DNA from: Candidatus Falkowbacteria bacterium
GTDB taxonomy: Bacteria > Patescibacteriota > Patescibacteriia > Patescibacteriales > Patescibacteriaceae
DNA length: 38,664 bases
Direction: 5' to 3'
NCBI GenBank assembly: GCA_037130845.1
Contig: JBAXSE010000013.1
Location: forward strand, 1-38,664
Shown one piece after another: positions 11,500-38,579 of this stretch; position 1 is the stretch's first letter, and each line of letters begins with the position of its first letter. The notes beneath the pieces were generated by a model, which had not been told where the DNA came from, made no database searches, and saw only the letters and a list, made by a program, of their open reading frames with translations. The position numbers were made by a program, and so were the translations under genes.

Positions 11500-11513
11500 T
11501 TTAGGAGTCAGAC

Positions 11514-13169
11514 ATGGAAAGGACTATTAGTCTAGATGGTCGCACTTTAACGCTGCAAGACGTTGTCTTGATAGCTCGCGGCTATCGCGGCCAAGACGGA
11601 CATCAACATTATCCATATGTTGAGTTATCCGAACAAGCACAAGCAGATATTGGCAGTTTTCGCCACGGCCTTGATCTTCGGATCGCGGCTGGCGATATTA
11701 TCTACGGTGTCAATACCGGTTGCGGTGTCAAGAAAGGCACTATCATTGATCAGAAAGAGATCGATGCCTATCAGGCTCATTATATTCCGGCGCATTGTGT
11801 CGGTTATGGCGAACCTTTTGATGAAGAAATTGTCAGAGCCGCTCTTGTTTTGCGGGTCAACTCTTTCGCCTTGGGAAATTCCGGAATCAGGCTGGAAACC
11901 TGCAATAAATTGTTGGAAATCTACAACAAGGGCGTGATTCCCTTTGTACCCGAACAGGGTTCGGTGGGCTCCAGCGGTGATTTGTGCCCGTTGGCTCATG
12001 TTGCGGCAGTCATTACTGGCGTCGAAGGACAACAAGCATTCTACCACGGCAAATTGATGCAAGCGGCAGAAGCTTTGTCGCTTGCCGGCATCGATCCGAT
12101 AGTATTAAAAGCCAAAGAAGCGATGGGCTTGACTAACGGCGCAACCTTAACTTTAGCCATGGGCTTGCTTGCTATTCATGATAGCAAAAAATTAATAGCG
12201 TATTCCCATATGGCGGCAGCATTGTCGCTTGAGGCGATCCGCGGTGAAAAAAACGCCTTTGACCCCAGAATCCACGAGGCCAGAAAGAACCAGCATAGCG
12301 CCAGAGTAGCGAAAATCATTCGTGACCTGACCAGCGGTTCAGACCGCATGACTACGTCAGCTAGAGATGTCTGTTTGACGGATGAGAAGAAATCGAAGAA
12401 ATATCAGGACGATGCTAAATCAAGGCCGACTCCTCGGGTCCAGGATGCCTATTCTTTCCGCGCCTATGCCCAGGTGGCAGGACCGGTGGTTAAAGCATTC
12501 GAGTATGCCGAAGAAGTCTTTTTGTCGGAAATGAATGCAGCTACAGATAATCCATTGATCTTTAAGAGCGGATTCGGGGAGAATGAAAGGTTTGAAGCGA
12601 TATCCGGTGGCAATTTTCATGGCGAACCGTTGGGTCAAGCAGCTGATTTTCTTAAGATTGCCATCCAGCAGTTGGCCAACATTTCCGATCGGCGTTTCTA
12701 TGCCTTGACGATGTCCACGACCAGCTATGGCTTGCCGGATGATTTGGCTGGAGCAATTAATCGCGATCTGAATACGGGATTAATGATCCTCCAATACACG
12801 ACAGCTGCTTTGGTATCAGAGAATAAAGCATTATGTTATCCTTCGGTTATCGATTCTATTCCGACTTCTGCAAACCAAGAAGATTATGTCAGTATGTCAA
12901 CTATCGGCGCGCGTAATCTGCGCAAGGTGATAAAAAATACTTATGGCGTTATCGGTGCCGAATTATTGGCTGCTGCCCAGGGCATATCACTGACCGAAGA
13001 CCAGCTAAGGCCGCTCGAGCTTGATGGCTTGGGAAGAGAAACTACCTTTGTTTATAAGAAGGTCCGCCAGGTAGTCGCCGCAATGTATGAAGATCGTTAT
13101 ATCCACAAAGATTTCAAGGCTTTGGTCGATTTCATGATAAAGTCTGATCCTCAGGATTTCTTACCATAG
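11514..13169 (+). CDS. hutH: Histidine ammonia-lyase-like MIO enzyme (aromatic amino acid lyase family)
   Basis: Collinear with HAL: YGVNTGCG, GSVGSSGDLCPLAH (MIO loop), LTNG, DPRIHEAR, QDAYSFR, TDNPL, SGGNFHGEP, TAALVSENK, PTSANQEDYVSM. AGGAG lies 6 nt before the ATG, which is only 14 nt after the hisS stop. Confidence 0.85.
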   Translation: MERTISLDGRTLTLQDVVLIARGYRGQDGHQHYPYVELSEQAQADIGSFRHGLDLRIAAGDIIYGVNTGCGVKKGTIIDQKEIDAYQAHYIPAHCVGYGEPFDEEIVRAALVLRVNSFALGNSGIRLETCNKLLEIYNKGVIPFVPEQGSVGSSGDLCPLAHVAAVITGVEGQQAFYHGKLMQAAEALSLAGIDPIVLKAKEAMGLTNGATLTLAMGLLAIHDSKKLIAYSHMAAALSLEAIRGEKNAFDPRIHEARKNQHSARVAKIIRDLTSGSDRMTTSARDVCLTDEKKSKKYQDDAKSRPTPRVQDAYSFRAYAQVAGPVVKAFEYAEEVFLSEMNAATDNPLIFKSGFGENERFEAISGGNFHGEPLGQAADFLKIAIQQLANISDRRFYALTMSTTSYGLPDDLAGAINRDLNTGLMILQYTTAALVSENKALCYPSVIDSIPTSANQEDYVSMSTIGARNLRKVIKNTYGVIGAELLAAAQGISLTEDQLRPLELDGLGRETTFVYKKVRQVVAAMYEDRYIHKDFKALVDFMIKSDPQDFLP

Positions 13170-13186
13170 TTCTGTATAGCTATCTT

Positions 13187-13218
13187 GCCGACCTTCGGAC
13201 CTGGGTCGGCTTTTTTTT
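13187..13218 (+). terminator. Rho-independent terminator after the hisS/HAL-like operon
   Basis: Stem gccgacc (13187-13193) / ggtcggc (13204-13210), followed by tttttttt. Confidence 0.7.
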
Positions 13219-13251
13219 GGCTATTCGTAGTAAAATTGGATTGGCTGGCAT

Positions 13252-13279
13252 TTGACAAAACTAGGAATCATGCTAGAAT
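13252..13279 (+). promoter_or_regulatory. Sigma70-type promoter for the GNAT/tRNA-His unit
   Basis: TTGACA (13252-13257), 16-nt spacer, TAGAAT (13274-13279). Confidence 0.5.
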
Positions 13280-13326
13280 ATTGAACAAAATAAAAATATC
13301 AGTTCATTAATAAAAAGGGTTAAAAG

Positions 13327-13995
13327 ATGCAAAAAAATACCTGCACTTATAGGAAAATAAATAACCTTGATAATGCCGCAGAAGCTGAAAAGTTAGCGCG
13401 TTGCTATCAGGAGGTTTTTGCCGGTTATCCTTGGAATGAATACAAGAAATGCCCTGATTGCGGGGTGAGGTGGGGCAAAGAAGATGCGCCGGAAGATGGA
13501 CGTTGTTCAAAATGTGATGCTACTCCCGTTCTTGTTGATTTCTGGGCGAAGGAGGATGTTATAAATGATTTCCAAAAACAATTACAAAGCTCCAGCGGCG
13601 TGTTGTGTGTTGCGGTTAATTCCAGAGACGAGATTACGGGTTTCTGTTCCGGTTACGAAACTACTCCCGAAGAATTGGAAAAGCATTTGCAGCTTCCTGA
13701 ATTGGCCAAATGGTTGCGTTGTTATTTTCCCAATGGTGTTAGATTCGGTTATCAAGATGAGATCGGCGTTCTCGATTCGTATCGAGGGCAGAAGATTGCT
13801 ACCGAACTTTTCAAGAAAAGAATGGAAGATTTTAAGGCAAGTGGTTTGGATATAGCTGTATTAAGAACCAAGACTATGCCTCCGACCATAACCTTTAAAT
13901 GGTACCCTCGATTGGGTTATAGTGTCATCCAATGTTATCATGATGATGATTGCCGTGTAATTATGGCGACAGAAATCAAGAGTATTCAGTTGTAG
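13327..13995 (+). CDS. GNAT-family N-acyltransferase with an inserted CxxC...CxxC zinc ribbon
   Basis: GNAT core YQDEIGVLDSYRGQKIATELFKKRMEDFKASGLDIAVLRT (acetyl-CoA motif-A-like R-G-Q-x-I-A) plus ...RLGYSVI. Zn ribbon CPDCG-x15-CSKC at aa 42-63. Confidence 0.7.
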   Translation: MQKNTCTYRKINNLDNAAEAEKLARCYQEVFAGYPWNEYKKCPDCGVRWGKEDAPEDGRCSKCDATPVLVDFWAKEDVINDFQKQLQSSSGVLCVAVNSRDEITGFCSGYETTPEELEKHLQLPELAKWLRCYFPNGVRFGYQDEIGVLDSYRGQKIATELFKKRMEDFKASGLDIAVLRTKTMPPTITFKWYPRLGYSVIQCYHDDDCRVIMATEIKSIQL

Positions 13996-14019
13996 AACAG
14001 TTGAGCTTTACATGCCGAT

Positions 14020-14094
14020 GGACGCGTAGCTCAGTTGGCCCAGAGCAATGGATTGTGGCTCCATTTGTCACGGGTTCGATTCCCGTCGCGTCCA
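14020..14094 (+). tRNA. tRNA-His (anticodon GUG), discriminator A73, no genomically encoded G-1, no encoded CCA
   Basis: Hand-folded cloverleaf. Acceptor GGACGCG (14020-26) pairs with CGCGTCC (14087-93). U8A9. D arm GCTC/AGTTGGCCCA/GAGC. Anticodon arm ATGGA / TT-GTG-GC / TCCAT with GTG at 14055-57. 5-nt variable loop. T arm ACGGG/TTCGATT/CCCGT. Position -1 is T14019 and position 73 is A14094. Confidence 0.9.
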
Positions 14095-14098
14095 CGAA

Positions 14099-24069: not shown

Positions 24070-26706
24070 ATGAATGTTGCACAATTAAACACAGAAAAGC
24101 GTCTTGCTACGGCTATTATGCCTTGGAAAGACATCAGCATCGGTTCGGCCGCTATTGTTTCTAGCACTATCGCTAATAGCGGTATTTTTACTTCTACCCA
24201 AACCTTTAAGATTCAAGTTCCGCTTAGTGTTAACGAAAGCGTAACCAGGGATTATGACGGTTATCGCTTGCCAATGGACAAGCTGGACGAAGACGGAGTA
24301 ATCCGAGTCGGCGAGAGCGTCGCCTTGGGTGATGTGCTGGTTGCCATGATTGAATATGATCCACGAGAGTATCAGCCGGAAGAAAAATTGCTCAAAGCAA
24401 TTTTTGGCGACGGTGCTACTAACGTGACCGATCGTTCGGTTACCATGTCTTTCCCTGATCCTGCTATAGTCTATAGCGTCGAAAAAAAACTCGAAGGCAA
24501 AAAAAAGCTGGTGACTGTTTATCTGGCCTTTAAACGTAAACTACGTTTGGGTGATATTCTGGTCGATAGCAAAGGTAACCAAGCAGTTGTCTCGGCTGTT
24601 GTTGCTGATAATGAAATGCCTTATCTGAAAAGCTCGCAAACCAGAGCTCAAATAGTGGTTACGCCGCTCACTGATTGCGGCGAAACGATGGTAGATCATT
24701 TGGATAAACAAAGGCTGGTTGTGGTATATGATACCGAAGATCCCAAGTTTATCCTGATAGCGCCGCCGCTTGATAGGCCAAGCAAAAATAAGAAGTGGTT
24801 ATGCAAAGATGAAGAAGCGCGTTTTGGGGCTATCGCTTGGAAAAAATTAGAACTATTGTCCGGTCAAAAGAATATCGGTTATGGCGTTCAAAGTAGATTG
24901 CGCAACGATGCCCAATTGGTGGATGGCATCAAGATCCGCCAAGAATTTATCACAAGCCTGTTGCATTACAATCTGCCGGCTGTAGCCAGAGAATTTTTGA
25001 CCGTCAAGTCTGACGATGCCAAAGGCTACGGCGATACTGTACAAGCTATTATTAATGGATGGTCTTTGCCCGCAGCGGCTGCTCCGGCTTCGCTAAAGCG
25101 CTATGAAGCGACGATCAAGGCAATGGCCTTGACTATCGGAGTCGATAACGGCAGTAGGCAAGTCGGCTTACTTGATGGCTATAATTATCCCAACCAGGAT
25201 TTGCCAGGTATTGGCGTTTCTTTGTGGGTAACTCCGCAATCAGAGATTTTGGCTCAGTCCCACGGTGAATTGACCGGTGTTGATTATATGGATGATGCTA
25301 TCAAGCAGGCTCAAGGGAAAAAGAAAACAGACAAGATAGAAGTCGGTTTGTTCAGCCAACGCATTTTCGGCCCTCTACGGGATTATGAATGCGCTTGCGG
25401 TAAATACAAGCGAGTCCGCTATAGCGGCATCGTCTGCGATCGTTGCGGTGTCTTGGTAGCGCAAAGCTCTGTGCGCAAAGAACGTTTCGGCCATATCAAC
25501 CTGGCTTTGCCTTGCGTGCATCCTTTGTTCGAAAAAGCAGTTGCCGAGTTATATAAGTCGATCGATTACACGAACACTCCGCAATATTTTGAAGAGCTGA
25601 TCGAAAAAAACTTTGATCTAGAAAAAGCCGATTATCTTTTTGAATGTTCCGAGATAATGAAAAAGTTATCGTTGCCCGAACAGCAGATTCTTAATGTCAT
25701 CCCGGTCATGCCGGCCGGTTGGCGTTCCGATTGGATGTCTTATACTAGCAGTTGGACAATGGATTTAAATTATCTATATAGCAGATTAATGACTCGTAAC
25801 AATCGATTGACTCGATTAATCGACATCAAAGCTCCTTGGATGATTATCTCCAATGAATATCGAATGCTACAAGAGGCTTTGTCTGAATTATTTAATTGCA
25901 CTCATTTGGGGAGTGAGACTCCGCCTGTCGGATTGATCCATAGCCTGCAAGCAGCCGGTCGCAATCTTTATGACAAAAAGGTTAGTTATTCCGGACGTGC
26001 GCTGGTTATCCCAGATGACCGCCTGGCAATCGACGAATGCGTTTTGCCTAGAACTCTGGCAGTCAGATTGTTTGAGCCTTTTGTGCTTCAGCGCTTGATG
26101 GCATCGCCGCCGGAAACTCCTTGCGACCCGATTTGGGACGATTCTTATCCGGATCTGCCTCCTATCTTGGCAGATGTAGTAGTAGATATTGCCGCTGGCA
26201 ATAAGACTACAGTCGATCTAAAGAAGATTGATGAAGATGAAGCTAGAGCTTATCCGGGCTATACCTACAAGACGGCTAGTGGAATGGTTAAAAATAACCA
26301 CCCCGAAGCATTGGAAAAGCTGGAAGCGATTGTTGGCGATAGGGTTGTCCTATTGAGCTCTGTCAGTCAGATAGAATTTGCCGGTTTTTGTCCACGTTTA
26401 AGTAACGAAGAAGTCATCAGACTTCATCCGCAGGCTATTAAGCTTCTTGGTATTTCTCTGGGTAAGGCTGGCAAGGCGTTAGTCTATCTACCCTTGTCTG
26501 ATGATGCTCAAGCGGAAGTCAAAGGTGTTATGTGCGGCCAAGAATGGTCGTATGTTCCTCAGACTCCGAGCGTTGGATATAGCTCTGTTCTTAATAGTAA
26601 TCTCAAGCATCTTGTTTCTAATCCTTGGTTGGATCAACCGGAGCCGGAAACCTGCAAATGGTTGCTATCCTTAAATGATCGATTTTTGCTCAATTATAGC
26701 AAATAG
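24070..26706 (+). CDS. RNA polymerase beta (C-terminal third) / beta-prime (N-terminal third) fusion-like protein lacking catalytic motifs (pseudo-RNAP)
   Basis: 878-aa ORF, AAGGAA SD. Beta-like blocks: PEEKLLKAIFGDGATNVTDRSV, VYLAFKRKLRLGDILVDSKGNQAVVS..EMPY, FLTVKSDD. Beta-prime-like blocks: GLFSQRIFGPLRDYECACGKYKRVRYSGIVCDRCGV, VIPVMPAGWR, LYSRLMTRNNRLTRLIDIKAP..ISNEYRMLQEAL, VSYSGRALVI, LPRTLAVRLFEPF. There is no NADFDGD; the aligned segment is LGISLGKAGKALVYLPL. Confidence 0.85.
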   Translation: MNVAQLNTEKRLATAIMPWKDISIGSAAIVSSTIANSGIFTSTQTFKIQVPLSVNESVTRDYDGYRLPMDKLDEDGVIRVGESVALGDVLVAMIEYDPREYQPEEKLLKAIFGDGATNVTDRSVTMSFPDPAIVYSVEKKLEGKKKLVTVYLAFKRKLRLGDILVDSKGNQAVVSAVVADNEMPYLKSSQTRAQIVVTPLTDCGETMVDHLDKQRLVVVYDTEDPKFILIAPPLDRPSKNKKWLCKDEEARFGAIAWKKLELLSGQKNIGYGVQSRLRNDAQLVDGIKIRQEFITSLLHYNLPAVAREFLTVKSDDAKGYGDTVQAIINGWSLPAAAAPASLKRYEATIKAMALTIGVDNGSRQVGLLDGYNYPNQDLPGIGVSLWVTPQSEILAQSHGELTGVDYMDDAIKQAQGKKKTDKIEVGLFSQRIFGPLRDYECACGKYKRVRYSGIVCDRCGVLVAQSSVRKERFGHINLALPCVHPLFEKAVAELYKSIDYTNTPQYFEELIEKNFDLEKADYLFECSEIMKKLSLPEQQILNVIPVMPAGWRSDWMSYTSSWTMDLNYLYSRLMTRNNRLTRLIDIKAPWMIISNEYRMLQEALSELFNCTHLGSETPPVGLIHSLQAAGRNLYDKKVSYSGRALVIPDDRLAIDECVLPRTLAVRLFEPFVLQRLMASPPETPCDPIWDDSYPDLPPILADVVVDIAAGNKTTVDLKKIDEDEARAYPGYTYKTASGMVKNNHPEALEKLEAIVGDRVVLLSSVSQIEFAGFCPRLSNEEVIRLHPQAIKLLGISLGKAGKALVYLPLSDDAQAEVKGVMCGQEWSYVPQTPSVGYSSVLNSNLKHLVSNPWLDQPEPETCKWLLSLNDRFLLNYSK

Positions 26707-28873: not shown

Positions 28874-29524
28874 GTGAAAATGCATCAAGCTGATATCAAT
28901 TTGTTTTACAGCTGTTTTTACTCACTTGGTCTTGATAGTCGTGACAAAGGCTTTGCCGCTTTAGCCGAGTATGTAGTGAATACTTATGCTGAACCGGGCA
29001 GGCATTATCACGATTTCGGGCATATTGGTAAGATGTTGAATGTTTTGGATCAATACTTACCCGAAGCAGATAGTTTGGATGCTTTACGCATTGCGATATT
29101 GTTTCATGATCTAAGGCAAGGCCATAAACACGAGCGTGAGAGCGCTTCAATGGCTGGAATTTTGCTTAAGCCTTTCAACCATGTCTTAGGTCGAATGCTA
29201 ATCAATCGAGTTGCCGAGCTGATACTCGACACTGTCCACCCAGGCAACCCCACGACCAATGACGGCCAATTGATCCACGATATCGATCTGTATGGCTTCG
29301 GCCAGAGCTTTGAAGAGTGTCGAGATGCCAGCCGGGGAATACGATTGGAGTATGCCGATATGAATGATGAAGATTTCTATCAGGCGCAAAAAGGTTTCTT
29401 TGAACATCTATTGTCGCAAGACAGTATCTACAAGCATCCGAGCTTTGCCATCTTTGAAGACAAAGCCAGGAATAATCTCAAAAAGCTAATAAAGATCCTG
29501 CCGATCTTGAGTATAATGCCCTAA
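28874..29524 (+). CDS. HD-superfamily metal-dependent phosphohydrolase-like protein (COG4339-like)
   Basis: GRHYHDFGHIGKML...AILFHDL gives the H...HD metal-ligand pattern. GTG28874 lies 5 nt after GGAG (ATG28880 is the alternative). Confidence 0.6.
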   Translation: MKMHQADINLFYSCFYSLGLDSRDKGFAALAEYVVNTYAEPGRHYHDFGHIGKMLNVLDQYLPEADSLDALRIAILFHDLRQGHKHERESASMAGILLKPFNHVLGRMLINRVAELILDTVHPGNPTTNDGQLIHDIDLYGFGQSFEECRDASRGIRLEYADMNDEDFYQAQKGFFEHLLSQDSIYKHPSFAIFEDKARNNLKKLIKILPILSIMP

Positions 29525-29529
29525 AGTTA

Positions 29530-29554
29530 AGCCGTCCTAACCGACGGCTTTTTG
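29530..29554 (+). terminator. Rho-independent terminator
   Basis: Stem agccgtc (29530-36) / gacggct (29543-49), followed by ttttg. Confidence 0.65.
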
Positions 29555-29598
29555 TTATTTTCAAACTGAACATATTGTGTTATTATTATGTAAAAGAC

Positions 29599-29880
29599 AT
29601 GAAAAAAAATATCTTCACCAAGAAATTCGATATCTTTAATAAGATCGATCGATATAGCATGCGTGACGCCGGTACTGACCATTCTTTTTTAAATGAGCTG
29701 GTTGGCTTTTGTTTCGCGCCGCTATGGTACTTGCTTGGAGGTGGAAGTAAATTTTTGCAGCGGACGCTGAAAGGTAAATTGATTTATTCGCTTATTCCGT
29801 TGCTTGCGGCCATTATCGGTATTATTATTTTTTTAATTATTATCCTGGGTGCTTTATTAATAAGCAAATTTATAAAATAA
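29599..29880 (+). CDS. Small membrane protein (93 aa), hypothetical
   Basis: ATG29599 within ORF 29575-29880. C-terminal TM LIPLLAAIIGIIIFLIIILGALLI. Confidence 0.5.
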   Translation: MKKNIFTKKFDIFNKIDRYSMRDAGTDHSFLNELVGFCFAPLWYLLGGGSKFLQRTLKGKLIYSLIPLLAAIIGIIIFLIIILGALLISKFIK

Positions 29881-29890
29881 TTTTATATTT

Positions 29891-30256
29891 ATGATGAAGG
29901 AAACGAGCAAATCGCTCAAGGCATATTTTATGATTATCGGCGTGCTCGGAATGTTTTCTGGCATAATCGATGTTCTGGGTTCTCTTGACTCGATGAACGG
30001 TAAATTATTTTTTATTGGAGTAATCGAGTTGGTGATGGCTTTGCTATTTATATATTTTGGTTTTAAAATTGATCGATATCTGAGACGCTCGCCAAAAATT
30101 TTAATCGCCTTTATTGCTGTTGTGGTGGCGATCAGATGTGTCGTGGCTTTGTTGGGTAAGGGATATGCCGCAATCGTTGCCTCTTTATTGATTGGCTGGT
30201 ATCTAATCTATAATGTCAAGAAATTATCACTACTGGTTAAAGAGGTAAAAAAATAA
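29891..30256 (+). CDS. Small polytopic membrane protein (121 aa, ~4 TM), hypothetical
   Basis: ORF starts 10 nt after the previous stop. It contains four hydrophobic helices. Confidence 0.55.
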   Translation: MMKETSKSLKAYFMIIGVLGMFSGIIDVLGSLDSMNGKLFFIGVIELVMALLFIYFGFKIDRYLRRSPKILIAFIAVVVAIRCVVALLGKGYAAIVASLLIGWYLIYNVKKLSLLVKEVKK

Positions 30257-30503
30257 AACCATTGACACATAATAACTTTTGTGTTTTAGCATAAAAATGA
30301 GCAATAAAAATCGTCAATTATGGCGATTTTTTGTTTTTTTACAAAAAGATATTTGACAAAAATAACAAAATATATTTTGGATAAAATTATAAGCAAATGC
30401 TATTGACAATTAAATTAAATAGTGTTAACAAGGAGACAAACTATGAGTTATAGTGATTTTCGGCAATTTTGCCAAATGTACCTTTACAGCAAAGGAAGTC
30501 TAA

Positions 30504-32876
30504 ATGTTATTAAGCATTGTCCTACAGTACATCGTTCCGATAATCGTTGCGTTCATCGTATTGATTGTCGTTATGAATTCATTCGCGAACGCCAAAGGCG
30601 ATCAGATTATTTTGTTAGAACGCCGTTGGTTCGGCAAGTCTATGCCGGACGGCCGTACAGTTGCTCTTCATAATGAAGTCGGCGTCCAGGCCAGAGTTCT
30701 GGGTCCAGGTTTCCATTGGTTGATTCCATTTATTTATAAGACAACCAAGATGCCTTTTACCACCATCCATAAGAATAAGGTCGGTGTCGTGCGTGCCATT
30801 ACTGGTGCCACTTTGCCGAGCGATAAGATTATGGCCAAGACGGTAGCTTGTGACTATTTCCAAGATGGCGAAGCCTTCTTGATGAATGGCGGACAAAAAG
30901 GTCCGCAGATTACCATACTGCCAGACGGTGAATACAAGATTAATCCGCATTTGTTCAATGTGGTAGAAGTTGAAGCCATCATGATTGATGATGATCATAT
31001 TGCAGTCGTTGAAGCCATTGCCGGTTTACCGGTCACTAGGCCCGGAGGAAACTTTGGATCGCCAGTACCCTGTGATAATTTCCAGGATGGCGAAGCTTTC
31101 TTGGCAAACGGCGGACAGAAAGGCCCGCAGGTTGCTTTTATAGAGCCAGGGTTCTATAGGATTAATACGATCATGTTTGACGTAGCGCTCATGCCTATTA
31201 CCGTAATACCAGGCGGGCATGTTGGTTTGGTTTTAGCGACTGATGGTGCCAGGATTCCTGAAGGCCGTTTGTTGGCTAACAAAGTAGAAGGACATGATAA
31301 TTTCTATAATGGCGAAGCTTTCTTGGCAAAAGGCGGCGAAAGAGGCCGTCAAATCGATACTTTGCCTCCGGGAAGATATAGGCTTAATCCAAGACTCTTT
31401 GAAATCAAAGAAAATGCTATTATCCCTTGGACGAACATTTCGGCCGATGAGGTCGGAATTGTGACAGTCAATGAAGGTAGGCCGATTATCGACGCTACCA
31501 AGATAGCTGCTGAAGAACTACCCATGGGTACGCACAATAATTTCCAGGATCCGAACGCCTTCTTGAAGGCTGGCGGACAAAAAGGTTTGCAGATTCCAGT
31601 GCTACGCGCCGGAAACTATGCAATCAATCCCTGGTTCTGTACTGTGGAAAAAGTACCGATGGTCCAGGTGGCAATCGGATTCTGCGGCGTCGTCACTAGC
31701 TATGTCGGTGAAGAGGGCAAAGATCTGACGGAAGATGATGTCAATGCCAAGATTGTCGAGAACGGCAAGAAGGGTATTTGGTCCGAACCGTTACAGCCGG
31801 GCAAACACCCCTTGAATACCAAGATCTGTAAAGTGGACATTGTGCCCACGACCCAGATATTGCTTAATTGGGCGGATAACCGTTCCAGTGCTCATGAGCT
31901 TGATACTAACTTGAAGACCATTACCTTACGTACGTCAGACGCCTTTAATGTTAATATGGATGTCTCCGTGATTATCCATATCCCAATGAAGAATGCGCCG
32001 AAGGTTATCGCCAATCTTGGATCGGTCAAGAATATGATTTCTCAGGTTCTTGAACCGGCTATCTCGTCGCACTTCCGTAATGCTGCTCAGTATATCCAGG
32101 CATTGGAATTATATACCAAGCGTAAAGAATTACAGGATACTGCTAAGGTTCATATCGATAGCGTACTTAAGGTGCACCATATCGATTCCAAGGAAACTTT
32201 GATTGCTGATGTTGTCCTGCCGCTCGAATTAACCAAGACGGTTACCGACAGGCAGATTGCCGAACAGGAAAAGAAAACCTTCTTTACTCAGAAGGAGGCA
32301 CAGGATGAAAGACGTACTCTCGAAAACGCCAAGGCCCAAGCAGATATGCAGCCTGAGGTAGTTAAATCCGAGAGGAATGTCGAAATCGCCAAGAACATCG
32401 CCGAAGGTAAGGTCAAGGAAGCGGAAGGTATGAAATCCGCCGCTATCTTGAAGGCTACCGGTGATGCCGAATCAGTCAAACTGAAAGCCAGAGCTGACGC
32501 CGAAGCAGTCACTGTGACCGCCGAAGCGAACGCCAAGAAGGTCAAGGTCACGGCTGAAGCCGATTCTGAGGCTATCATGAAAGTTGGAACATCCGAAGCT
32601 GATATCATATTAGCCAAAGGTAAATCAACTGCCGAGTCCTACAAGCTGGAAGTCGATGCCATGGGCAAAGAGGTCTTTGGACAGATCCGTGTAGTCAGAG
32701 AAATCGCAGCCAGCAAGCTGAAATTCATTCCTGAAAACTTAATTATCGGCGGTGGCAGCGGTGCTGGCAGCAGTTCGATGGAAAACATGATGGGCATTGC
32801 TTTGATGGAAAAGCTATCCGGCAGAGCATTTAGTGCTACCGAAAAAGCTGTTGAAAAAACAGAAGTAAAAGTTTAA
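30504..32876 (+). CDS. Membrane-anchored SPFH/band-7 flotillin-like protein with a repeat-expanded N-terminal region
   Basis: N-terminal TM LLSIVLQYIVPIIVAFIVLIVVM. SPFH-like core (LRTSDAFNVNMDVSVIIHI...). C-terminal E/A/K-rich flotillin-type coiled coil (AEGKVKEAEGMKSAAILKATGDAESVKLKARADAEAV...). Confidence 0.75.
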   Translation: MLLSIVLQYIVPIIVAFIVLIVVMNSFANAKGDQIILLERRWFGKSMPDGRTVALHNEVGVQARVLGPGFHWLIPFIYKTTKMPFTTIHKNKVGVVRAITGATLPSDKIMAKTVACDYFQDGEAFLMNGGQKGPQITILPDGEYKINPHLFNVVEVEAIMIDDDHIAVVEAIAGLPVTRPGGNFGSPVPCDNFQDGEAFLANGGQKGPQVAFIEPGFYRINTIMFDVALMPITVIPGGHVGLVLATDGARIPEGRLLANKVEGHDNFYNGEAFLAKGGERGRQIDTLPPGRYRLNPRLFEIKENAIIPWTNISADEVGIVTVNEGRPIIDATKIAAEELPMGTHNNFQDPNAFLKAGGQKGLQIPVLRAGNYAINPWFCTVEKVPMVQVAIGFCGVVTSYVGEEGKDLTEDDVNAKIVENGKKGIWSEPLQPGKHPLNTKICKVDIVPTTQILLNWADNRSSAHELDTNLKTITLRTSDAFNVNMDVSVIIHIPMKNAPKVIANLGSVKNMISQVLEPAISSHFRNAAQYIQALELYTKRKELQDTAKVHIDSVLKVHHIDSKETLIADVVLPLELTKTVTDRQIAEQEKKTFFTQKEAQDERRTLENAKAQADMQPEVVKSERNVEIAKNIAEGKVKEAEGMKSAAILKATGDAESVKLKARADAEAVTVTAEANAKKVKVTAEADSEAIMKVGTSEADIILAKGKSTAESYKLEVDAMGKEVFGQIRVVREIAASKLKFIPENLIIGGGSGAGSSSMENMMGIALMEKLSGRAFSATEKAVEKTEVKV
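30765..31670 (+). repeat. Four clear tandem protein modules of 74-80 aa, plus degenerate copies on either side, within the SPFH gene
   Basis: Motif [CH]D[YN]F[QY][DN]GEAFL.[NK]GG[QE][KR]G.Q...L.PG.Y.[IL]N recurs with Phe codons at nt 30858, 31080, 31302 and 31542. The similarity is visible at nt level (tttccaggatggcgaagctttcttggcaaa...). Confidence 0.8.
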
Positions 32877-33014: not shown

Positions 33015-33129
33015 AGTAAAAATGCTATTGACATCGCTTAGGTAAAGTGTTTAGATAGGCTCATTATTACGATAATAAAAAGCTAATAATAGCATAAAAT
33101 TGTTCATTAATATATTTGCGGAGGATAAA

Positions 33130-33807
33130 ATGGAAAGGTCTAATAGAGTAATTATCCCGGGTTTAGGGACTATTCTCAGGCTTAAGATCGCTAGCATGCA
33201 TGTCGATGCGGAAAACGGCTTTGCGCCCCTGTGTCCGTTGGAACTGCCGGTACCGGACGGCCAGAATATTGTACACGAGCTGATAGCTCAAAATAACTTC
33301 GCCCGCTATCTGGTAGGCAGCAAAGAAGGACACTCGGACCATCCCCAATGGGCGGCCACCGAGAGCGAGCCGGCCTTTACGCCGATGACGGGCTATCCCA
33401 ATATGAATCGGCGTTGGAATGTGCATTGCGCTATCGGTACCTATGGCGGACAATTGCTGGACGGACTGCCGCCGATTAGCGGCTATGATTTTATGGTCTG
33501 GAAGGGCATTGAAGATGATATGCATCCCTATGGGGCTTGCTATCACGACCTGGCCAAGAAGCTGTCTACCGGGCTGATAGAATGGCTGACCTGCCAGAGA
33601 ATCTCGACAGTGATAGTGGGTGGTCTGGCGACTGATTACTGCGTGCTGGAAACAGTCTTGGAATTATTAGAGGCTGGTTTTGAAGTAGTAGTCAATCTGG
33701 GAGCTTGCCGCGGTGTCGCAACAGACACGACAGACACAGCTATCAAAAAGATGATTAAGCACGGCGCGATTATTATCCAGTCCAGCCAAGAACTAACGCT
33801 TGTCTAA
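33130..33807 (+). CDS. pncA: Nicotinamidase (isochorismatase-fold, PncA)
   Basis: ATG33130 lies 4 nt after GGAGGA. Catalytic Asp region VDAENGF, Lys in MVWKG, Cys in VGGLATDYCV. His-rich metal-site segment EGHSDHPQW. Confidence 0.8.
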   Translation: MERSNRVIIPGLGTILRLKIASMHVDAENGFAPLCPLELPVPDGQNIVHELIAQNNFARYLVGSKEGHSDHPQWAATESEPAFTPMTGYPNMNRRWNVHCAIGTYGGQLLDGLPPISGYDFMVWKGIEDDMHPYGACYHDLAKKLSTGLIEWLTCQRISTVIVGGLATDYCVLETVLELLEAGFEVVVNLGACRGVATDTTDTAIKKMIKHGAIIIQSSQELTLV

Positions 33808-33947
33808 GGGCACGATCCATCGCAAAGTCAAACAGGGGAAAGCCAGCCTTTCCCCCTACTCAAGTGGCGCTGAAAGTTTCGGCGCCAGCTGTCTAGGCAG
33901 TTCTTTAAAATTGAATAATCAAATTGTTATATTTATCAGGAGTAGAC

Positions 33948-35222
33948 ATGTATTTACCATCAAGTTTGTTCAGCTACAAGCAGGACAAAGGCATCATCCA
34001 AACGCTCATGGATGTGGACTTCTATAAGTTCACTATGGGGCAATTGGCCTTTAAGTATTATCGCAATGTGCAAGTGACCTTCAAGTTCACCAATCGCAAT
34101 AAGAATGTTAAGCTGGCCAAGATTATCGATATCGCCCGTTTGCGTGAAGAGCTGGACCATTGCCGTACCCTAAGCTTCAAGAATTCGGAGATCCATTATT
34201 TGCGCGGTACTAATGAGTATCAGCATAGGATGTTCGAGGAAGATTACTTGCAGTTCTTGGCGACCTTGCGTTTGCCAGATTATGAGCTGGAATTTGTGGG
34301 AGATGAAATTTGGCTGACCTTTACGGGCTTTTGGCCGGAAGTGACATTGTGGGAAACCCTCGCCTTGTCGATTATCAACGAGCTCTATGTTCGTGCCATG
34401 TTAGGCAAGGATACTAGCGCTTGGGAACGCAACTACGCTGTCGGAGTCACCAGGTTGTATGAGAAGATTGAAAGCTTGCGCGAATATCCGGAATTAGTCT
34501 TCACTGATTTCTGTACCCGTCGCCGTTTTAACGGCCCGTGGCAGGGATACTGCATCGAGACGACCGTGCGAGAATTACCCGGGCAGTTCCTGGGCACTTC
34601 CAACGTGATGTTCTCTCAGCAATTGGCAGACCACAATTTCGTCCCTATGGGCACATCCGCTCATGAACGTGATATGGTGTTGGCTGCTTTGCAGTTCAAT
34701 AGCGATGTGGGCATCCTTAATAGCCTCTGGCAGAGCGCGGATGAATGGTACAATCAATATGGCGAAGGCCTGTCTATCTTTTTGCCCGATACCTTCGGCA
34801 CCGATGCCTTTTTCGCCCAATTCGGGTCGGCTCGAGCCAAAAAATGGAAGGGCTCGCGGCAAGATTCCGCTGATCCATATGCCTACGGCAGAAAGTTGAT
34901 CAAGTATTATGAAGGCTATGAGATTGATCCACGAAATAAAATGTGCATCTTTAGCGATGGCTTGACGCACGAATTGATGATTTGTTTGCATATATATTTC
35001 CATCGGCAGCTCAAAGATGGTTATGGCTACGGCACGCATTTCGGCAACGACTTGCTGGTTCCGCCTTTGCCCATTGTGGTCAAAGTCGACAGCGTCAACG
35101 GCAATCCGGCTGTCAAGCTTTCTGACAATCTGGCCAAAGGCATGGGATTGCAGACTGAACAAGAGCGTTACAAAAGGATATTTGGCTACACGCGTGATTT
35201 CAGACAAGAATGTGTTGTATAA
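33948..35222 (+). CDS. pncB: Nicotinate phosphoribosyltransferase
   Basis: ATG33948 lies 5 nt after CAGGAG. N-terminal DVDFYKFTMGQ, FTDFCTRRR, MGTSAHERDM (phospho-His loop), SDGL. Length 424 aa. Confidence 0.85.
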   Translation: MYLPSSLFSYKQDKGIIQTLMDVDFYKFTMGQLAFKYYRNVQVTFKFTNRNKNVKLAKIIDIARLREELDHCRTLSFKNSEIHYLRGTNEYQHRMFEEDYLQFLATLRLPDYELEFVGDEIWLTFTGFWPEVTLWETLALSIINELYVRAMLGKDTSAWERNYAVGVTRLYEKIESLREYPELVFTDFCTRRRFNGPWQGYCIETTVRELPGQFLGTSNVMFSQQLADHNFVPMGTSAHERDMVLAALQFNSDVGILNSLWQSADEWYNQYGEGLSIFLPDTFGTDAFFAQFGSARAKKWKGSRQDSADPYAYGRKLIKYYEGYEIDPRNKMCIFSDGLTHELMICLHIYFHRQLKDGYGYGTHFGNDLLVPPLPIVVKVDSVNGNPAVKLSDNLAKGMGLQTEQERYKRIFGYTRDFRQECVV

Positions 35223-35240
35223 TTTAACTCGGAGTTTAGA

Positions 35241-36149
35241 ATGATAGTAGAAAGAAGGAAGTTCTATGGTCTGAACGGAGTGATCCAGGAAGACCGTGAG
35301 CGGTTTAAGCATATTCCTTTGTTGGAATTCTCTAAGGAAGTTATGAATAGTTTTTCTCTTGCCAGTACAAAGATACGCGACAAGGATGATCTAGAGAAAG
35401 CGGTAGCTGATATTTATTGCAAATGGACGGCAGGCTATGGTTATTATGGCGATGTCATCAATGTTAGCTGTTTTATTGCTGACGACCATTGTTATCTGCA
35501 AGTAAATTATATCGCTCGTTTGGCTTTTCCCAAGCCGAATATGGCCTCCGACCTGGTGCCTATCGTGATTGATAATCGCGGCTATGCCTTTCTGATTGCC
35601 ATTACCCGCAAATACAATCCCGGTAAAGGCGGACTTGCCTTGATAGGCGGCTTCCGAAGCGTGATCAAGAATCGCATGGAAACGTCAGTTGAAGCAGCAA
35701 TGCGAGAGGCTAGTGAAGAAGCAGTCGGTCTTGATCTAGAGTATATAGTTAATTGTCACGATGGGATATATTCTAATATAACTCCCCAAAACAGTCAGGC
35801 GATACTAGTGCTGGGCCTGCGTCATGAGATTGTCGGCGGCATCTGGCAGCAGGTGGTGAATCTGGAGTGGTTGGGTACTTATCGTACTGCTCCGGATCGA
35901 GATGAATCATACATCACTCGGCAACGAGTCGATATAACTGATGCTTATGTCCTGCCGATTCGAGTTGATCGGCTGTTGACCAAAGCAGAAATCGCCACTT
36001 GGTTTAGACCGGGCGATGATGCTGAAACGGTCGAAATTATCCGGATTGACGATGGCTACGAGCCTGCTTTTGTCTTTAACCATCATAGTGTCATCTTCAA
36101 GGAAGCTTGGAAAAAGATCGCGAATGAAGTGGCCGTTCTCTATATGTAA
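35241..36149 (+). CDS. Nudix-fold protein with a ~100-aa N-terminal extension and a near-canonical Nudix box; function unclear
   Basis: GGAG SD. LALIGGFRSVIKNRMETSVEAAMREASEEAVGL has E-x7-REASEE intact but the G-to-E spacing is lengthened. C-terminal AFVFNHHSVIFKEAW resembles the LAFDH..I motif of ADP-ribose-type Nudix/NrtR proteins. Confidence 0.6.
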   Translation: MIVERRKFYGLNGVIQEDRERFKHIPLLEFSKEVMNSFSLASTKIRDKDDLEKAVADIYCKWTAGYGYYGDVINVSCFIADDHCYLQVNYIARLAFPKPNMASDLVPIVIDNRGYAFLIAITRKYNPGKGGLALIGGFRSVIKNRMETSVEAAMREASEEAVGLDLEYIVNCHDGIYSNITPQNSQAILVLGLRHEIVGGIWQQVVNLEWLGTYRTAPDRDESYITRQRVDITDAYVLPIRVDRLLTKAEIATWFRPGDDAETVEIIRIDDGYEPAFVFNHHSVIFKEAWKKIANEVAVLYM

Positions 36150-36264
36150 GCAAATTGATTATTCACAGTCGACGGCTAACACGACCGTCGACTATTTATC
36201 TAAGCGATCAAACTCTTGATCCTTTGGATAAGTAAAGTACTTTGAAAATTTATAAGGAACAATC

Positions 36265-37002
36265 ATGAAATATTTAACCGTTTTTTCGGACAGTCTGGCT
36301 GCACAAGATCTAGCCCGCCAAGTCAAGGAAAAGCATTTGCAGGTAACCGATGATCCGCAACAAGCGGATGCGATTATCGTTGGTGGTGGAGATGGCACTA
36401 TGTTGCACGCAATTCATCAGTATTGGCAATTAAAGGTACCTTTTTTAGGAATTAATTGTGGTTCGGTCGGTTTTTTATTAAACCCTGTCGAAACGGAGAG
36501 GGATCTTTTGTTGTTATTGCATCATTTCCAAGAGGTTAAATTGAACTTAATGGAAGTGCATATAGATGCTGAAAGCGATAGCTTTACCTTGCATGCCTTC
36601 AATGACGTTTATCTAAACGTCAAACCGGGCTCCATTTGTTATGGCACGATTCAAGGCGAGCATTATCCCAGACAAAAATTTCGTGGAGACGGCCTAATAG
36701 TAGCTACCGGCCAAGGTTCAACGGCCTACAATCGTAATGCCGGCGGGTCGATATTACCTTTGCAAAATGACCTGTTGGCTATTACCGGTATTTGTACTTA
36801 TGATACGCTACGCGATGTGGTGTCTCAACAGGATCTGATTATTACTATCACTCGTGGTGAGGTGACGGCCAATGCTGACAATCAGTCGGTAGCCGGTGTC
36901 AGGTCAATCGTTATCCGTCCGGGCTTTAGCACTGTCGCCTTGGGTTTCCGCCCCGACTATAATTTCGAAAGCAAAAGATATTCATTCTATAACCAATTCT
37001 AG
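36265..37002 (+). CDS. nadK: NAD+ kinase
   Basis: DAIIVGGGDGTML (GGDG motif), NDVYL, GDGLIVATGQGSTAYNRNAGGSI. Confidence 0.88.
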   Translation: MKYLTVFSDSLAAQDLARQVKEKHLQVTDDPQQADAIIVGGGDGTMLHAIHQYWQLKVPFLGINCGSVGFLLNPVETERDLLLLLHHFQEVKLNLMEVHIDAESDSFTLHAFNDVYLNVKPGSICYGTIQGEHYPRQKFRGDGLIVATGQGSTAYNRNAGGSILPLQNDLLAITGICTYDTLRDVVSQQDLIITITRGEVTANADNQSVAGVRSIVIRPGFSTVALGFRPDYNFESKRYSFYNQF

Positions 37003-37012
37003 GAGTGCAGTA

Positions 37013-37954
37013 ATGTATAAATTAACACAGCAACAGTTGGCTGACGTAGCAAAATACGCCAGCTCTAACCTCTACGCCTATTGCGTGAAAAATAATATCC
37101 ACCATCTGGTGGTTGGTTCTTCCGGCGGTTTGGACAGCGCGGTTACGCTTAAACTAGCTCAATTAGCCTGCAACTTAGCCGAAAAAGATGGCTATGAATT
37201 AAAGAGCATCGGCATGGTCTTGCCTTGTTTCTCCAGCCGTAGGTCGATTGATTTGGGTCGGCTAGCTATTAGGTCTGCCGGTGCTGAAGTAATCGAAATC
37301 AATCTGGATAAAGCTTTTAGTGCTTTGATGAATAATGCAGTCGAGGAAGGCATCGGGTGGCAGTTGGATGACATCGAACCTGATGTAACGGCTGCCGACT
37401 GGCGGCAAAGGCGAATCATCGCTCAGGGCAATATCAAAGCTCGTCTGCGTATGATCCATGTCTATCAGGTAGCCGGCTTGCTCAAGGGCATAGTGCTCTC
37501 GACCGATAATCTGAGCGAACTATGGATGGGCTTTTGGACCCTGCATGGGGACGTAGGCGACTACGGCATGATTCAGAATCTGCTCAAAGGCTTGGAGCTC
37601 TATGACTTGGCACGCTACTTGGGCGTACCGAAAGAGATTATCGCGGCTAAGCCGGACGACGGACTAGGCATAGGCAAAGGGGATGAAGATCAGTTGCATG
37701 CGCCTTATGACAAGATTGATGAAGTGATGATTACGTTCTATCAACAGAACGAACCGCATATCATAAACAGACGACACTCGGCAGTCCTGCCGGCTGTCGA
37801 GGGAGTGAAGCCGGAAGTAGTCTCAGAATTAGTGGCTCGCTACCAAGCGACCAATTATAAGCGTTGGGGGACGGTCAATCTGACCCGCAGCGACTTGCAT
37901 CTGCCGCCAATCAACAATATCAATCTGCGAGGCGACAGTGAAAACCAAGCTTGA
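37013..37954 (+). CDS. nadE: NH3-dependent NAD+ synthetase
   Basis: ATG37013 lies 7 nt after AGGAG and 10 nt after the nadK stop. PP-loop VVGSSGGLDSAV; GNIKARLRM; STDNLSELWMGFWTLHGD; KPDDGL. Confidence 0.85.
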   Translation: MYKLTQQQLADVAKYASSNLYAYCVKNNIHHLVVGSSGGLDSAVTLKLAQLACNLAEKDGYELKSIGMVLPCFSSRRSIDLGRLAIRSAGAEVIEINLDKAFSALMNNAVEEGIGWQLDDIEPDVTAADWRQRRIIAQGNIKARLRMIHVYQVAGLLKGIVLSTDNLSELWMGFWTLHGDVGDYGMIQNLLKGLELYDLARYLGVPKEIIAAKPDDGLGIGKGDEDQLHAPYDKIDEVMITFYQQNEPHIINRRHSAVLPAVEGVKPEVVSELVARYQATNYKRWGTVNLTRSDLHLPPINNINLRGDSENQA

Positions 37955-38579
37955 TTTCATCCAAGGCTTCAAGGCCTTAACCGAACTGGCATTGGCCGCT
38001 GCCAAGCCGGTAGTAGTATTAATTGCCGGAGCCAGTGGTTCCGGCAAGAGTCATCTGGCTAAGCTGTTGTCCGCCAAGCTGCTGCAATGCGGCATTTTGA
38101 CTACCGTTATTGGACAGGATGATTATTTCCGCGATTGTTTCGATCCCGATTTGCCGCTCGATAGCCAAGGACGGGGAATCTTCGATCTGCCGGCTTCCTA
38201 TCTCGATTTGGAACTGGCTAGCGACATCCGCATGTTGCTTAGCGGCTTTACGGTCCAGGGTCCGCTTTATGACAAGAAAGTCAATCTGCGGTCGCTAACC
38301 AAGAAAACGCTGGAAGCTGCGCCTGTGGTTATTGTGGAAGGTCTCTATGCCATTTTGGCGTTGGCTGATAATGATGATATGCCTATCATCAAGATTTATG
38401 TGGAGGCCGACTCGGATATTTGTTTGCGGTCGCGAATTAGGCGTGATACCGTGGCTTTTGGCATCAGCGCCGAAAAGGTAGAGAAATTCTACAACGAACG
38501 GGTATTGCCTTATGCCAAGGAGGCCTTGACCGACCAGGCCAAGCTGGCTGACTTGATTATCGTTAATGATCACCTATAA
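37938..38579 (+). CDS. Uridine kinase/PRK-family P-loop nucleoside kinase (possible nicotinamide riboside kinase)
   Basis: GTG37938 overlaps the nadE stop by 17 nt. P-loop IAGASGSGKSHLAK, GQDDYF, PLYD, IVEGLYA, YVEADSDICLRSRIRRD. Confidence 0.7.
   Translation: MKTKLDFIQGFKALTELALAAAKPVVVLIAGASGSGKSHLAKLLSAKLLQCGILTTVIGQDDYFRDCFDPDLPLDSQGRGIFDLPASYLDLELASDIRMLLSGFTVQGPLYDKKVNLRSLTKKTLEAAPVVIVEGLYAILALADNDDMPIIKIYVEADSDICLRSRIRRDTVAFGISAEKVEKFYNERVLPYAKEALTDQAKLADLIIVNDHL

Follow-up and report, generated by a model that had tools for sequence, protein, structure and literature searches.

A contig of a Candidatus Falkowbacteria bacterium (JBAXSE010000013.1 of assembly GCA_037130845.1, positions 1 to 38,664 of the forward strand; this whole 38,664-nt stretch is called the window below) encodes a 790-residue protein in which a small domain is repeated several times between an N-terminal transmembrane (TM) helix and a C-terminal SPFH core. 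What is the repeated domain, and what kind of structure would a chain built in this way form? The protein is flotillin-type by sequence and resembles the major vault protein (MVP) in its architecture and predicted structure, and it is best described as an SPFH1-amplified, membrane-anchored flotillin-type protein built like MVP. Its parts are listed here, with coordinates given as positions in the window and amino acid (aa) numbers referring to the product of the open reading frame (ORF) 30504..32876. HH denotes profile-profile comparison and AF2 the AlphaFold2 model discussed below.

30504..32876, + strand: SPFH gene (ORF list, stop codon included); 790 aa, TM-anchored, SPFH1-amplified, flotillin-type
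30507..30578, + strand: N-terminal TM helix, aa 2-25 (AF2 helix; mean hydropathy 3.05 over 19 residues)
30579..30767, + strand: M0, degenerate first module, aa 26-88, membrane-proximal, SPFH1-like (HH, Band_7, and blastp matches)
30768..30989, + strand: M1, full module, aa 89-162 (HH versus M2/M3/M4 98.4-99.9%; pLDDT 79-93)
30990..31211, + strand: M2, full module, aa 163-236 (blastp, HH, DNA repeat; pLDDT 82-93)
31212..31451, + strand: M3, full module, aa 237-316 (blastp, HH, DNA repeat; pLDDT 83-91)
31452..31691, + strand: M4, full module, aa 317-396 (blastp, HH, DNA repeat; pLDDT 66-88)
31692..31883, + strand: M5, last module, degenerate, aa 397-460, corresponding by HH and Band_7 overlap to the SPFH1 of the genuine SPFH domain
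31761..32306, + strand: Pfam Band_7/SPFH match, aa 420-601 (PF01145, E 1.1e-27)
32247..32660, + strand: long A/E/K-rich helix, aa 582-719, predicted flotillin-type coiled coil or "cap helix" equivalent (AF2; flotillin-2 match)
32661..32873, + strand: C-terminal tail, aa 720-790, with a conserved IPENL-IGGG motif (conserved columns P743, E769, G773)

Tandem modules and their kinship to the SPFH N-terminal subdomain

The original prediction, made from the sequence alone, had read the product as an SPFH/flotillin-like protein with an N-terminal TM helix, a C-terminal SPFH core, and an A/E/K-rich helix, and profile searches bear this out. The Band_7 match scores 97.7 bits against a cut-off of 23.6, and the best match of the family profile among solved structures is flotillin-2 (9l3g_a; E 1.6e-8, or 1.1e-4 when the single 790-aa sequence is the query), with further matches to prohibitin (E 1.4e-4) and HflC (E 1e-3). 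The flotillin-2 alignment places profile positions 575-761 on residues 204-412 of 428, that is, on the helical flotillin region and the tail. Two features of the SPFH superfamily are present: a membrane segment N-terminal to the SPFH domain (aa 2-25) and a helical region after it, to which HflC residues 227-290 and the flotillin-2 residues just given correspond; the composition of the aa 582-719 helix is 19% A, 14% E, and 14% K. Flotillin-1/2, FloT/YuaG, and YqiK (COG2268) share the plan of membrane-attached N-terminus, SPFH domain, A/E-rich helical region, and C-terminal tail, whereas the solved flotillin and SPFH chains that were matched (256-428 residues) are too short to hold a module array, of which members of the present family have 2-15 copies. 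By analogy with solved SPFH cages (PMC12915596), the tail is likely the cap- or lid-forming end.

Existing annotation captures only part of this protein. No NCBIfam family matches it at E <= 0.01, hence no curated flotillin model; no Pfam or NCBIfam model covers aa 1-420; the PHROG family phrog_200 matches the SPFH part only; PADLOC returns no match for the gene, and blastn of the region against phage genomes finds none. The NCBI call (P0001) is 767 aa long and starts at Met24 (window 30573), which removes the TM helix. A hydrophobic N-terminal segment is nevertheless found in 51 of 51 homologs, and in the closest relative (P0002) the helix is almost residue-for-residue identical. Across all 51 homologs, lysine and arginine average 0.04 before the helix versus 1.9 within the 15 residues after it, a pattern from which, by the positive-inside rule, we infer that the bulk of the protein lies in the cytoplasm with its N-terminus outside.

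Between helix and core, the motif [CH][DN][YN]F[QY][DN] recurs at aa 116, 190, 264, and 344 (Phe codons at 30858, 31080, 31302, and 31542), and the four modules of 74-80 aa that had been predicted around these codons prove to be homologous repeats. Compared with each other by blastp, M1-M4 give E of 1e-9 to 1.6e-19 at 31-49% identity; HH comparison, with the profile of each of the four positions built from 51 orthologs, gives probabilities of 98.4-99.9% and E of 5e-15 to 9e-31. A helix is inserted into every module, and all share the invariant motif F-x-x-x-x-A-F / GG-x-K-G-x-Q / PG-x-Y-x-N. The more degenerate copies suspected on either side of these four are, as judged by profile comparison, real as well, with weaker support than M1-M4: against a broad module profile built from 434 instances, M5 reaches an HH probability of 96% (E 3.5e-9 over 40 columns) and M0 one of 74% (E 2.8e-5), and M0 also matches M2 by blastp at E 7.5e-4.

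At the DNA level, a 69-nt core occurs four times with spacings of 222, 222, and 240 nt and 67-81% identity between copies, and the repeat region contains no near-identical tandem DNA repeat. Repetition of this kind greatly exceeds chance, and copies diverged this strongly argue for an old duplication and not for an assembly artifact. Recent DNA duplication or misassembly was rejected on the strength of this divergence and of the orthologous conservation of each module position across species. Indeed, a given module position is 59-74% identical to its orthologs in other species and 37-42% identical to its paralogs in the same protein. Since the modules are nearer to their orthologs than to their paralogs, the expansion is older than the spread of the family.

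The identity of the module follows from where the SPFH domain begins. The Band_7 match starts inside M5, with aa 420 at profile position 14, and the M0 region (aa 59-100) matches Band_7 profile positions 14-54 with E 9.5e-5. Because M5 and M0 both match the start of SPFH, the repeat unit is, by these profile alignments, a duplicated SPFH N-terminal beta subdomain, interrupted at the F-x-D-x-x-A-F-L motif by a short helix. Neither Pfam nor NCBIfam has a named domain for it, PADLOC and PHROGs are likewise blank for the modules, and in Pfam the models PF01505, PF17794-6, and PF11978 are absent from the modules at E <= 10.

Predicted fold and comparison with the vault wall

We modeled the full-length protein with AlphaFold2 (51 homologs, no templates, single chain). 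The model is confident over aa 1-400, where the 10-residue block means of pLDDT are mostly 79-93. In it, the TM helix (aa 2-25) leads into a row of small beta modules, and aa 582-719 make up one long helix. When this model was compared with the PDB using Foldseek, the top 15 matches were all MVP (E 1.3e-9 to 2.4e-5, probability 1.00), including isolated MVP R1-R7 crystal structures with TM-scores of 0.50-0.59 normalized to target; HflK/C, stomatin, prohibitin, and flotillin appeared only at E > 0.04, and the Foldseek search of a viral structure library returned ordinary short SPFH proteins only. Two different structure comparison methods place MVP far above all else, at a structure-based identity of 9-12%. 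Rigid superposition on the MVP wall brings 288 residues into register at 3.7 Å, so the predicted end-to-end arrangement of about five modules is vault-wall-like, beyond the fold of a single module. In the model, both module fold and end-to-end arrangement are thus like those of the MVP wall, a likeness that the original prediction had missed.

This likeness has a natural reading in terms of domain homology. In MVP, repeats R1-R9 have been described as SPFH1 homologues, with the shoulder corresponding to SPFH2 and the cap helix to the SPFH coiled coil (PMC12915596); in ECOD, ordinary archaeal SPFH proteins have their N-terminal subdomain assigned to the "MVP repeat" group (PMC13607799). Tandem domains of MVP-repeat fold N-terminal to an SPFH-type shoulder, the architecture of MVP, are what the predicted structure contains. 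The archaeal proteins with a single MVP repeat followed by SPFH (ECOD H-groups 3529.1 + 230.5; PMC13607799) have the same building blocks, equivalent to M5 plus the core here; they carry one copy in 300-400 aa, whereas here that copy is amplified in tandem.

The differences from MVP itself are equally clear. MVP (PDB 4V60, 3GF5, 9BW5) is soluble, has no TM helix, and joins its two halves through the N-terminal repeats, whereas the 790-aa protein is membrane-anchored at its N-terminus; with that end serving as the anchor, at most a half cage would be expected. The MVP repeats are about 55 aa long and number nine, whereas there are four full and two partial modules here, the full ones of 74-80 aa, with an inserted short helix and a motif of their own. 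Moreover, the C-terminal half of the 790-aa protein is flotillin-like by sequence.

Distribution and genomic neighborhood

More than 120 full-length homologs (765-827 aa) are 68-86% identical to the protein over 95-100% of its length, and the mean column identity among 51 sequences is 72%. Our scan of species-representative genomes yielded 50 loci in Acidobacteriota (including a closed 3.5-Mb Holophaga chromosome), Verrucomicrobiota, Bacteroidota, Myxococcota, Pseudomonadota, Bdellovibrionota, and Patescibacteria. A neighbor-joining tree mostly tracks these phyla, with few intrusions, which points to strong constraint more than to recent transfer as the source of the high identity; rampant recent horizontal gene transfer as the cause of the approximately 70% cross-phylum identity was largely rejected on this evidence.

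According to the original prediction, ordinary prokaryotic SPFH proteins lack this expansion, but it is not confined to the 790-aa protein. An exhaustive single-module profile search over 1.84 billion cluster representatives (clusters at 50% identity) found 1,325 proteins at E <= 1e-3, 738 at <= 1e-10, and 181 at <= 1e-30, with 2-15 profile-matched stretches per protein, and relatives include a 30%-identical Rhizobium protein that PGAP names "flotillin family protein." The prediction was to count as refuted if the module proved to be an already named, widespread domain that is commonly tandem in SPFH proteins; half of this applies, as it is widespread and often in tandem but carries no name in Pfam or NCBIfam. 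The best 150 proteins, when mapped, share one architecture, in which one or more TM helices precede 2-13 modules, mostly two or three, and an SPFH core. Among 151 proteins analyzed, the core was detected in 92, always after the modules, and most of the others are short fragments; Band_7 matched in 60 of 63 module-bearing relatives.

At the upper end of the range are three giants of 1,638-1,802 aa (P0121, P0122, and P0123) from the filamentous cyanobacteria Symploca (Symploca sp. SIO2E6, NET58509.1) and Okeania, with 13-15 modules and a C-terminal VWA domain after the SPFH and helical regions; VWA also occurs in 7 of 63 further relatives. In one relative (P0142), two predicted TM helices upstream of the modules flank a weak PG_binding_1 match. 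Cultured carriers include Geomonas (WP_224962355.1, 835 aa, 5+1 modules), Ralstonia insidiosa ATCC 49129 (WP_024979564.1, 696 aa, three full modules), and Rhizobium sp. CCGE532 (WP_120670126.1, 679 aa, two full modules). Public names are generic ("SPFH domain-containing," "YqiK" from JGI, "HflC," "flotillin family" from PGAP, "VWA domain-containing," "hypothetical"), and none of the source names examined mentions the vault; a literature search likewise found no description of a TM-anchored tandem-module family.

Prokaryotic MVP homologues have been reported from a few Bacteria (Daly et al. 2013, PMC3762200; Sokolskyi 2019, 10.1101/872010) and as ten Asgard archaeal proteins with five repeats (PMC12962969). 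The bacterial ones of Daly et al. include H8MNI3, A6FXM1, A1ZGE7, H6L4P8, I4AHY9, and A9AUD4. The reported homologues likewise combine repeats, an SPFH shoulder, and a helix, and some of the bacterial ones have a recognizable band-7 domain. They were found through BLAST/PSI-BLAST or reciprocal structure matches to MVP, whereas the present family is invisible to such sequence searches, is TM-anchored, and with its 1,325 clusters is far more abundant; we set it apart from the reported homologues on the basis of their published descriptions.

The family also extends to mobile elements. A 642-kb uncultured phage (LR756502.1; L055 3965-5860) encodes a 631-aa, 38%-identical protein with a TM helix, two full modules, and an SPFH core; Vibrio phage Kuja (L056 2896-4539) encodes a 547-aa protein with one full module, annotated as "putative membrane protein," and relatives of Kuja carry the one-module form as well. 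Plasmid-borne relatives occur in Ralstonia, Rhizobium, Streptomyces, and Clostridium, and two of the relatives with modules also carry fused STAND/AAA NTPase domains (AAA_16, nSTAND1). In Geomonas (L061 9055-13172), genes for an OLD-family ATPase/TOPRIM protein and a UvrD-type helicase come after the SPFH gene and make up a Gabija-like pair. One could take such occurrences, the fusions and the Gabija-like neighbors included, to mean that the family serves primarily a phage or mobile-element function (membrane remodeling during infection, superinfection exclusion, or defense) and not that of a housekeeping membrane organizer. We regard this as the least probable of the readings considered here, and very improbable in itself, in view of the blank PADLOC result, the chromosomal location in the closed Holophaga genome and in many metagenome-assembled genomes amid unrelated housekeeping neighbors, and the tree that mostly follows phyla.

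Does the gene have a partner? SPFH genes of the flotillin type are classically paired in bacterial operons with NfeD (YqiJ/YuaF; PMC2636767), and two small ORFs lie upstream of the gene in the window, with these signals around them:

29599..29880, + strand: small ORF A, 93 aa, hypothetical protein (coding score 0.215 bits/codon; singleton cluster)
29891..30256, + strand: small ORF B, 121 aa, hypothetical protein with 3-4 hydrophobic segments (coding score 0.249 bits/codon)
30306..30331, + strand: terminator-like hairpin between the small ORFs and the SPFH gene, 11-bp stem then TGTTTTTTTA (consensus match only)
30425..30454, + strand: promoter-like site TTAACA-18-TATAGT (10/12 consensus matches; consensus match only)
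30492..30498, + strand: Shine-Dalgarno-like AAGGAAG, 5 nt 5' of ATG 30504 (read from sequence)

The original prediction had proposed these ORFs as two small polytopic membrane proteins without an NfeD-like tail that might form a non-orthologous partner set. Both ORFs exist; a hydropathy scan shows three hydrophobic segments in ORF B but only one clear segment in ORF A. The absence of an NfeD-like tail is borne out, as neither ORF matches NfeD in Pfam, NCBIfam, PADLOC, or PHROGs (the sole sub-threshold Pfam match is DUF3180). The partnership itself was rejected. Neither ORF has diverged cluster members, and their coding scores lie below those of every bona fide gene in the window (0.28-0.61) and near that of an antisense decoy (0.21). 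In tblastn searches, the small ORFs and the other window neighbors found no match at the 50 related loci, where neighbor sizes, strands, and hydrophobicity vary from locus to locus; clustering of flanking proteins revealed no family common beyond one close Verrucomicrobia clade. No conserved neighbor is present in the 50 loci or three further contexts, and the classical NfeD partner is absent beside the SPFH gene itself. The contexts of P0012 and of the Geomonas, Ralstonia, and Rhizobium genes contain no such small partner. In the nearest relative (86% identity; L051), an RpoB/C-like ORF, a 106-aa ORF, an ABC-F ATPase, and a 216-aa gene upstream are syntenic with the window, yet both small ORFs are absent and the corresponding gap measures 569 bp. 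The terminator-like hairpin also appears to separate the small ORFs from the SPFH gene, and the promoter-like site lies between them as well.

Several further observations concern this neighborhood. In place of the small ORFs, L051 5500-5800 holds a short tandem repeat coding for "MADRIIPPTGG" together with masked bases. In the window, GC content dips to 0.37-0.40 at 29000-31000 versus about 0.45 elsewhere (0.35-0.37 in the small ORFs), and terminator-like hairpins at 29529-29550 and 30306-30331 bracket the small ORFs. Directly downstream of the SPFH gene (33100-38579) lies a NAD metabolism block consisting of an isochorismatase/PncA-like gene, NAPRTase, a 302-aa ORF, NAD kinase, NAD synthase, and a PRK/uridine-kinase-like gene; in L051, glutamine synthetase and IMPDH follow the SPFH gene instead. 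Farther upstream, an 878-aa ORF on the + strand (24070-26706) joins part of the RpoB C-terminus (RNA_pol_Rpb2_6, aa 10-199) to part of the RpoC N-terminus (RNA_pol_Rpb1_1, aa 528-613). Its length falls far short of either subunit, an 868-aa version is kept in the syntenic contigs L051 and L052, and tblastn against phages returned only bacterial rpoB/rpoC junctions at about 29% identity. A cluster at 10084-14095 comprises histidyl-tRNA synthetase (10084-11499), an aromatic/histidine ammonia-lyase (11514-13169), and tRNA-His (14020-14095). The 878-aa ORF, the tRNA, and the aminoacyl-tRNA synthetase had raised the idea that the window comes from a huge phage, which was not established, given that the ORF resembles bacterial rpoB/rpoC only and that the contig carries typical bacterial genes.

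Proposed assembly and its meaning

The analysis establishes in what order the domains stand, that the modules are homologous and vault-wall-like in predicted structure, that the C-terminal half resembles flotillin, that conservation is strong and module number variable, and that no partner gene is conserved. What would such chains form? All solved SPFH family members are rings or cages (PMC13100048, PMC12624060, PMC12915596), and because every one of them is so built, the 790-aa protein may by analogy be expected to form a ring or cage as well. We think it rather probable that the assembly is a membrane-capped, cytoplasm-facing, homo-oligomeric "half vault" whose wall is heightened by stacked SPFH1 modules. 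The SPFH1 subdomain would have been amplified in tandem to give, in order, the TM helix, M0, M1-M4, M5, the SPFH2 core, the helix of about 140 residues, and the tail. Protomers standing side by side would make a large homo-oligomeric ring, with the N-terminal TM helices in a ring in the cytoplasmic membrane and the bulk in the cytoplasm. M0-M5 would stack into a tall cylindrical wall, the SPFH2 domains would form a shoulder, and the helices and C-terminal tails would close a dome above it. Such a half vault would enclose a membrane patch and a large lumen, and its wall height would be set by the number of modules (2-15 among relatives), each adding an estimated 2.5-3 nm or so if the vault is taken as a guide.

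Several points weigh against this assembly. The SPFH core is modeled poorly (pLDDT < 50 at aa 450-580), and a fragment model of the modules only (aa 89-316) was set aside at a pLDDT of 52, which leaves the full-length model as the one source of confident module geometry. No Pfam Vault or MVP_shoulder match is present in the 790-aa protein or in the 70 relatives scanned, although Pfam Vault repeats and MVP_shoulder are present in all true MVPs scanned. With the module profile as query, PDB sequences gave spurious matches only (E >= 0.12). A human MVP sequence checked against the PDB (100% over residues 1-549) was aligned with further vertebrate MVP homologs, and the MVP repeats, shoulder, and full length were compared by hhalign with four profiles of the present family (module, N-terminal, C-terminal, and full-length); probabilities were at most 3%, equal to the reversed-profile control, in a comparison of low power with a shallow vertebrate alignment. 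That low power is evident from calibration on the same shallow alignment, in which MVP R1, R2, R6, R8, and R9 likewise fail to find other MVP repeats. Finally, cage formation is drawn by analogy, and the orientation is read from the positive-inside rule only. We do not claim membership in the MVP family, as its sequence signatures are missing here and a soluble, two-halved vault is at odds with the TM anchor.

If the vault likeness came about by chance or through predictor bias, the modules would represent some unrelated small beta domain, and the protein would be no more than an unusually long SPFH protein of YqiK type. The lack of MVP signal by HH and HMMER, the low structure-based identity, and the low-confidence module-only model would fit this, as would the presence of MVP among the PDB entries used to train AlphaFold. 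However, the sequence evidence independently links the module to the SPFH N-terminus, which has been equated with the MVP-repeat fold (PMC12915596, PMC13607799), and MVP comes out on top by both structure comparison methods from a model built without templates. We accordingly give coincidence little credence, slightly more than a primarily phage-related role.

A more serious contender, though still unlikely in our judgment, is a flotillin-like ring or dome standing on modules that do not seal against each other and that act as rigid spacers, legs, or client-binding sites, so that the resemblance to the vault would hold for the single chain only. Sequence-level kinship is indeed confined to flotillin, prohibitin, and HflC; the lateral contacts between modules come from analogy; and the invariant module motifs and the inserted helix could equally make up a ligand site. 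Against such spacers, the modeled modules fit the MVP wall rigidly over 288 residues, and lateral packing of SPFH1 domains is seen in all solved SPFH cages (PMC12915596, PMC13100048). Packing also agrees better with how strongly the whole module surface is conserved, as would be expected if most of it were buried in lateral contacts, which is an argument and not a test.

The remaining choice concerns the side of the membrane. HflK/C, QmcA-YbbJ, stomatin, prohibitin, and erlin share an N-terminal anchor, an SPFH domain, a helical wall, and a C-terminal lid (PMC13100048), and HflK/C, stomatin, and prohibitin are among the weak fold or sequence matches to the 790-aa protein; all of these, however, have a single SPFH1 and lack a wall of repeats. 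HflK/C is a periplasmic heteromer that works with FtsH, and QmcA has an NfeD partner. HflK/C is thus a precedent for a periplasmic SPFH cage, and the bulk of the 790-aa protein could by that precedent face the periplasm or cell surface, its modules forming a stalk or adhesin-like array in the envelope. The VWA and PG_binding_1 domains of some relatives, weak sub-threshold CshA_repeat matches of relatives' modules, and the "lipoprotein" label of phrog_200 would agree. This outward orientation nonetheless seems improbable to us: the positive-inside pattern is consistent in 51 of 51 homologs; in P0142 the PG_binding_1 match lies between two TM helices, which would return the modules to the cytoplasm; no CshA stretch passes on its own; and flotillin, the closest relative by sequence, is found on the cytoplasmic side of the membrane (PMC11775717).

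How the vault arose and what it does are questions of long standing. The construction principle seen here, tandem amplification of SPFH1 before SPFH2 and a helical cap, is present in a large and strongly conserved bacterial group that spans at least seven bacterial phyla, plasmids, and phages, that is membrane-attached like ordinary SPFH proteins, and that has been hidden under generic names. Internal duplication, visible in M0-M5, offers a concrete route to a vault wall. We further entertain, as a possibility that we would not bet on, that in these proteins repeats packed side by side make a closed cylinder capped by a flotillin-like dome, that a vault-type wall is a recurrent or even ancestral elaboration of membrane-bound SPFH cages, widespread in bacteria and their phages, and not an invention of eukaryotes or Asgard archaea, and that the family is the membrane-bound link so far missing between canonical SPFH half cages and the free vault. 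The span of 2-15 modules constitutes a natural series of "wall heights" that bears on SPFH cage geometry, and the cultured hosts Geomonas, Ralstonia insidiosa ATCC 49129, and Rhizobium are tractable organisms for the study of bacterial vault-like cages. Should such cages exist, few protein compartments on bacterial membranes would be larger.

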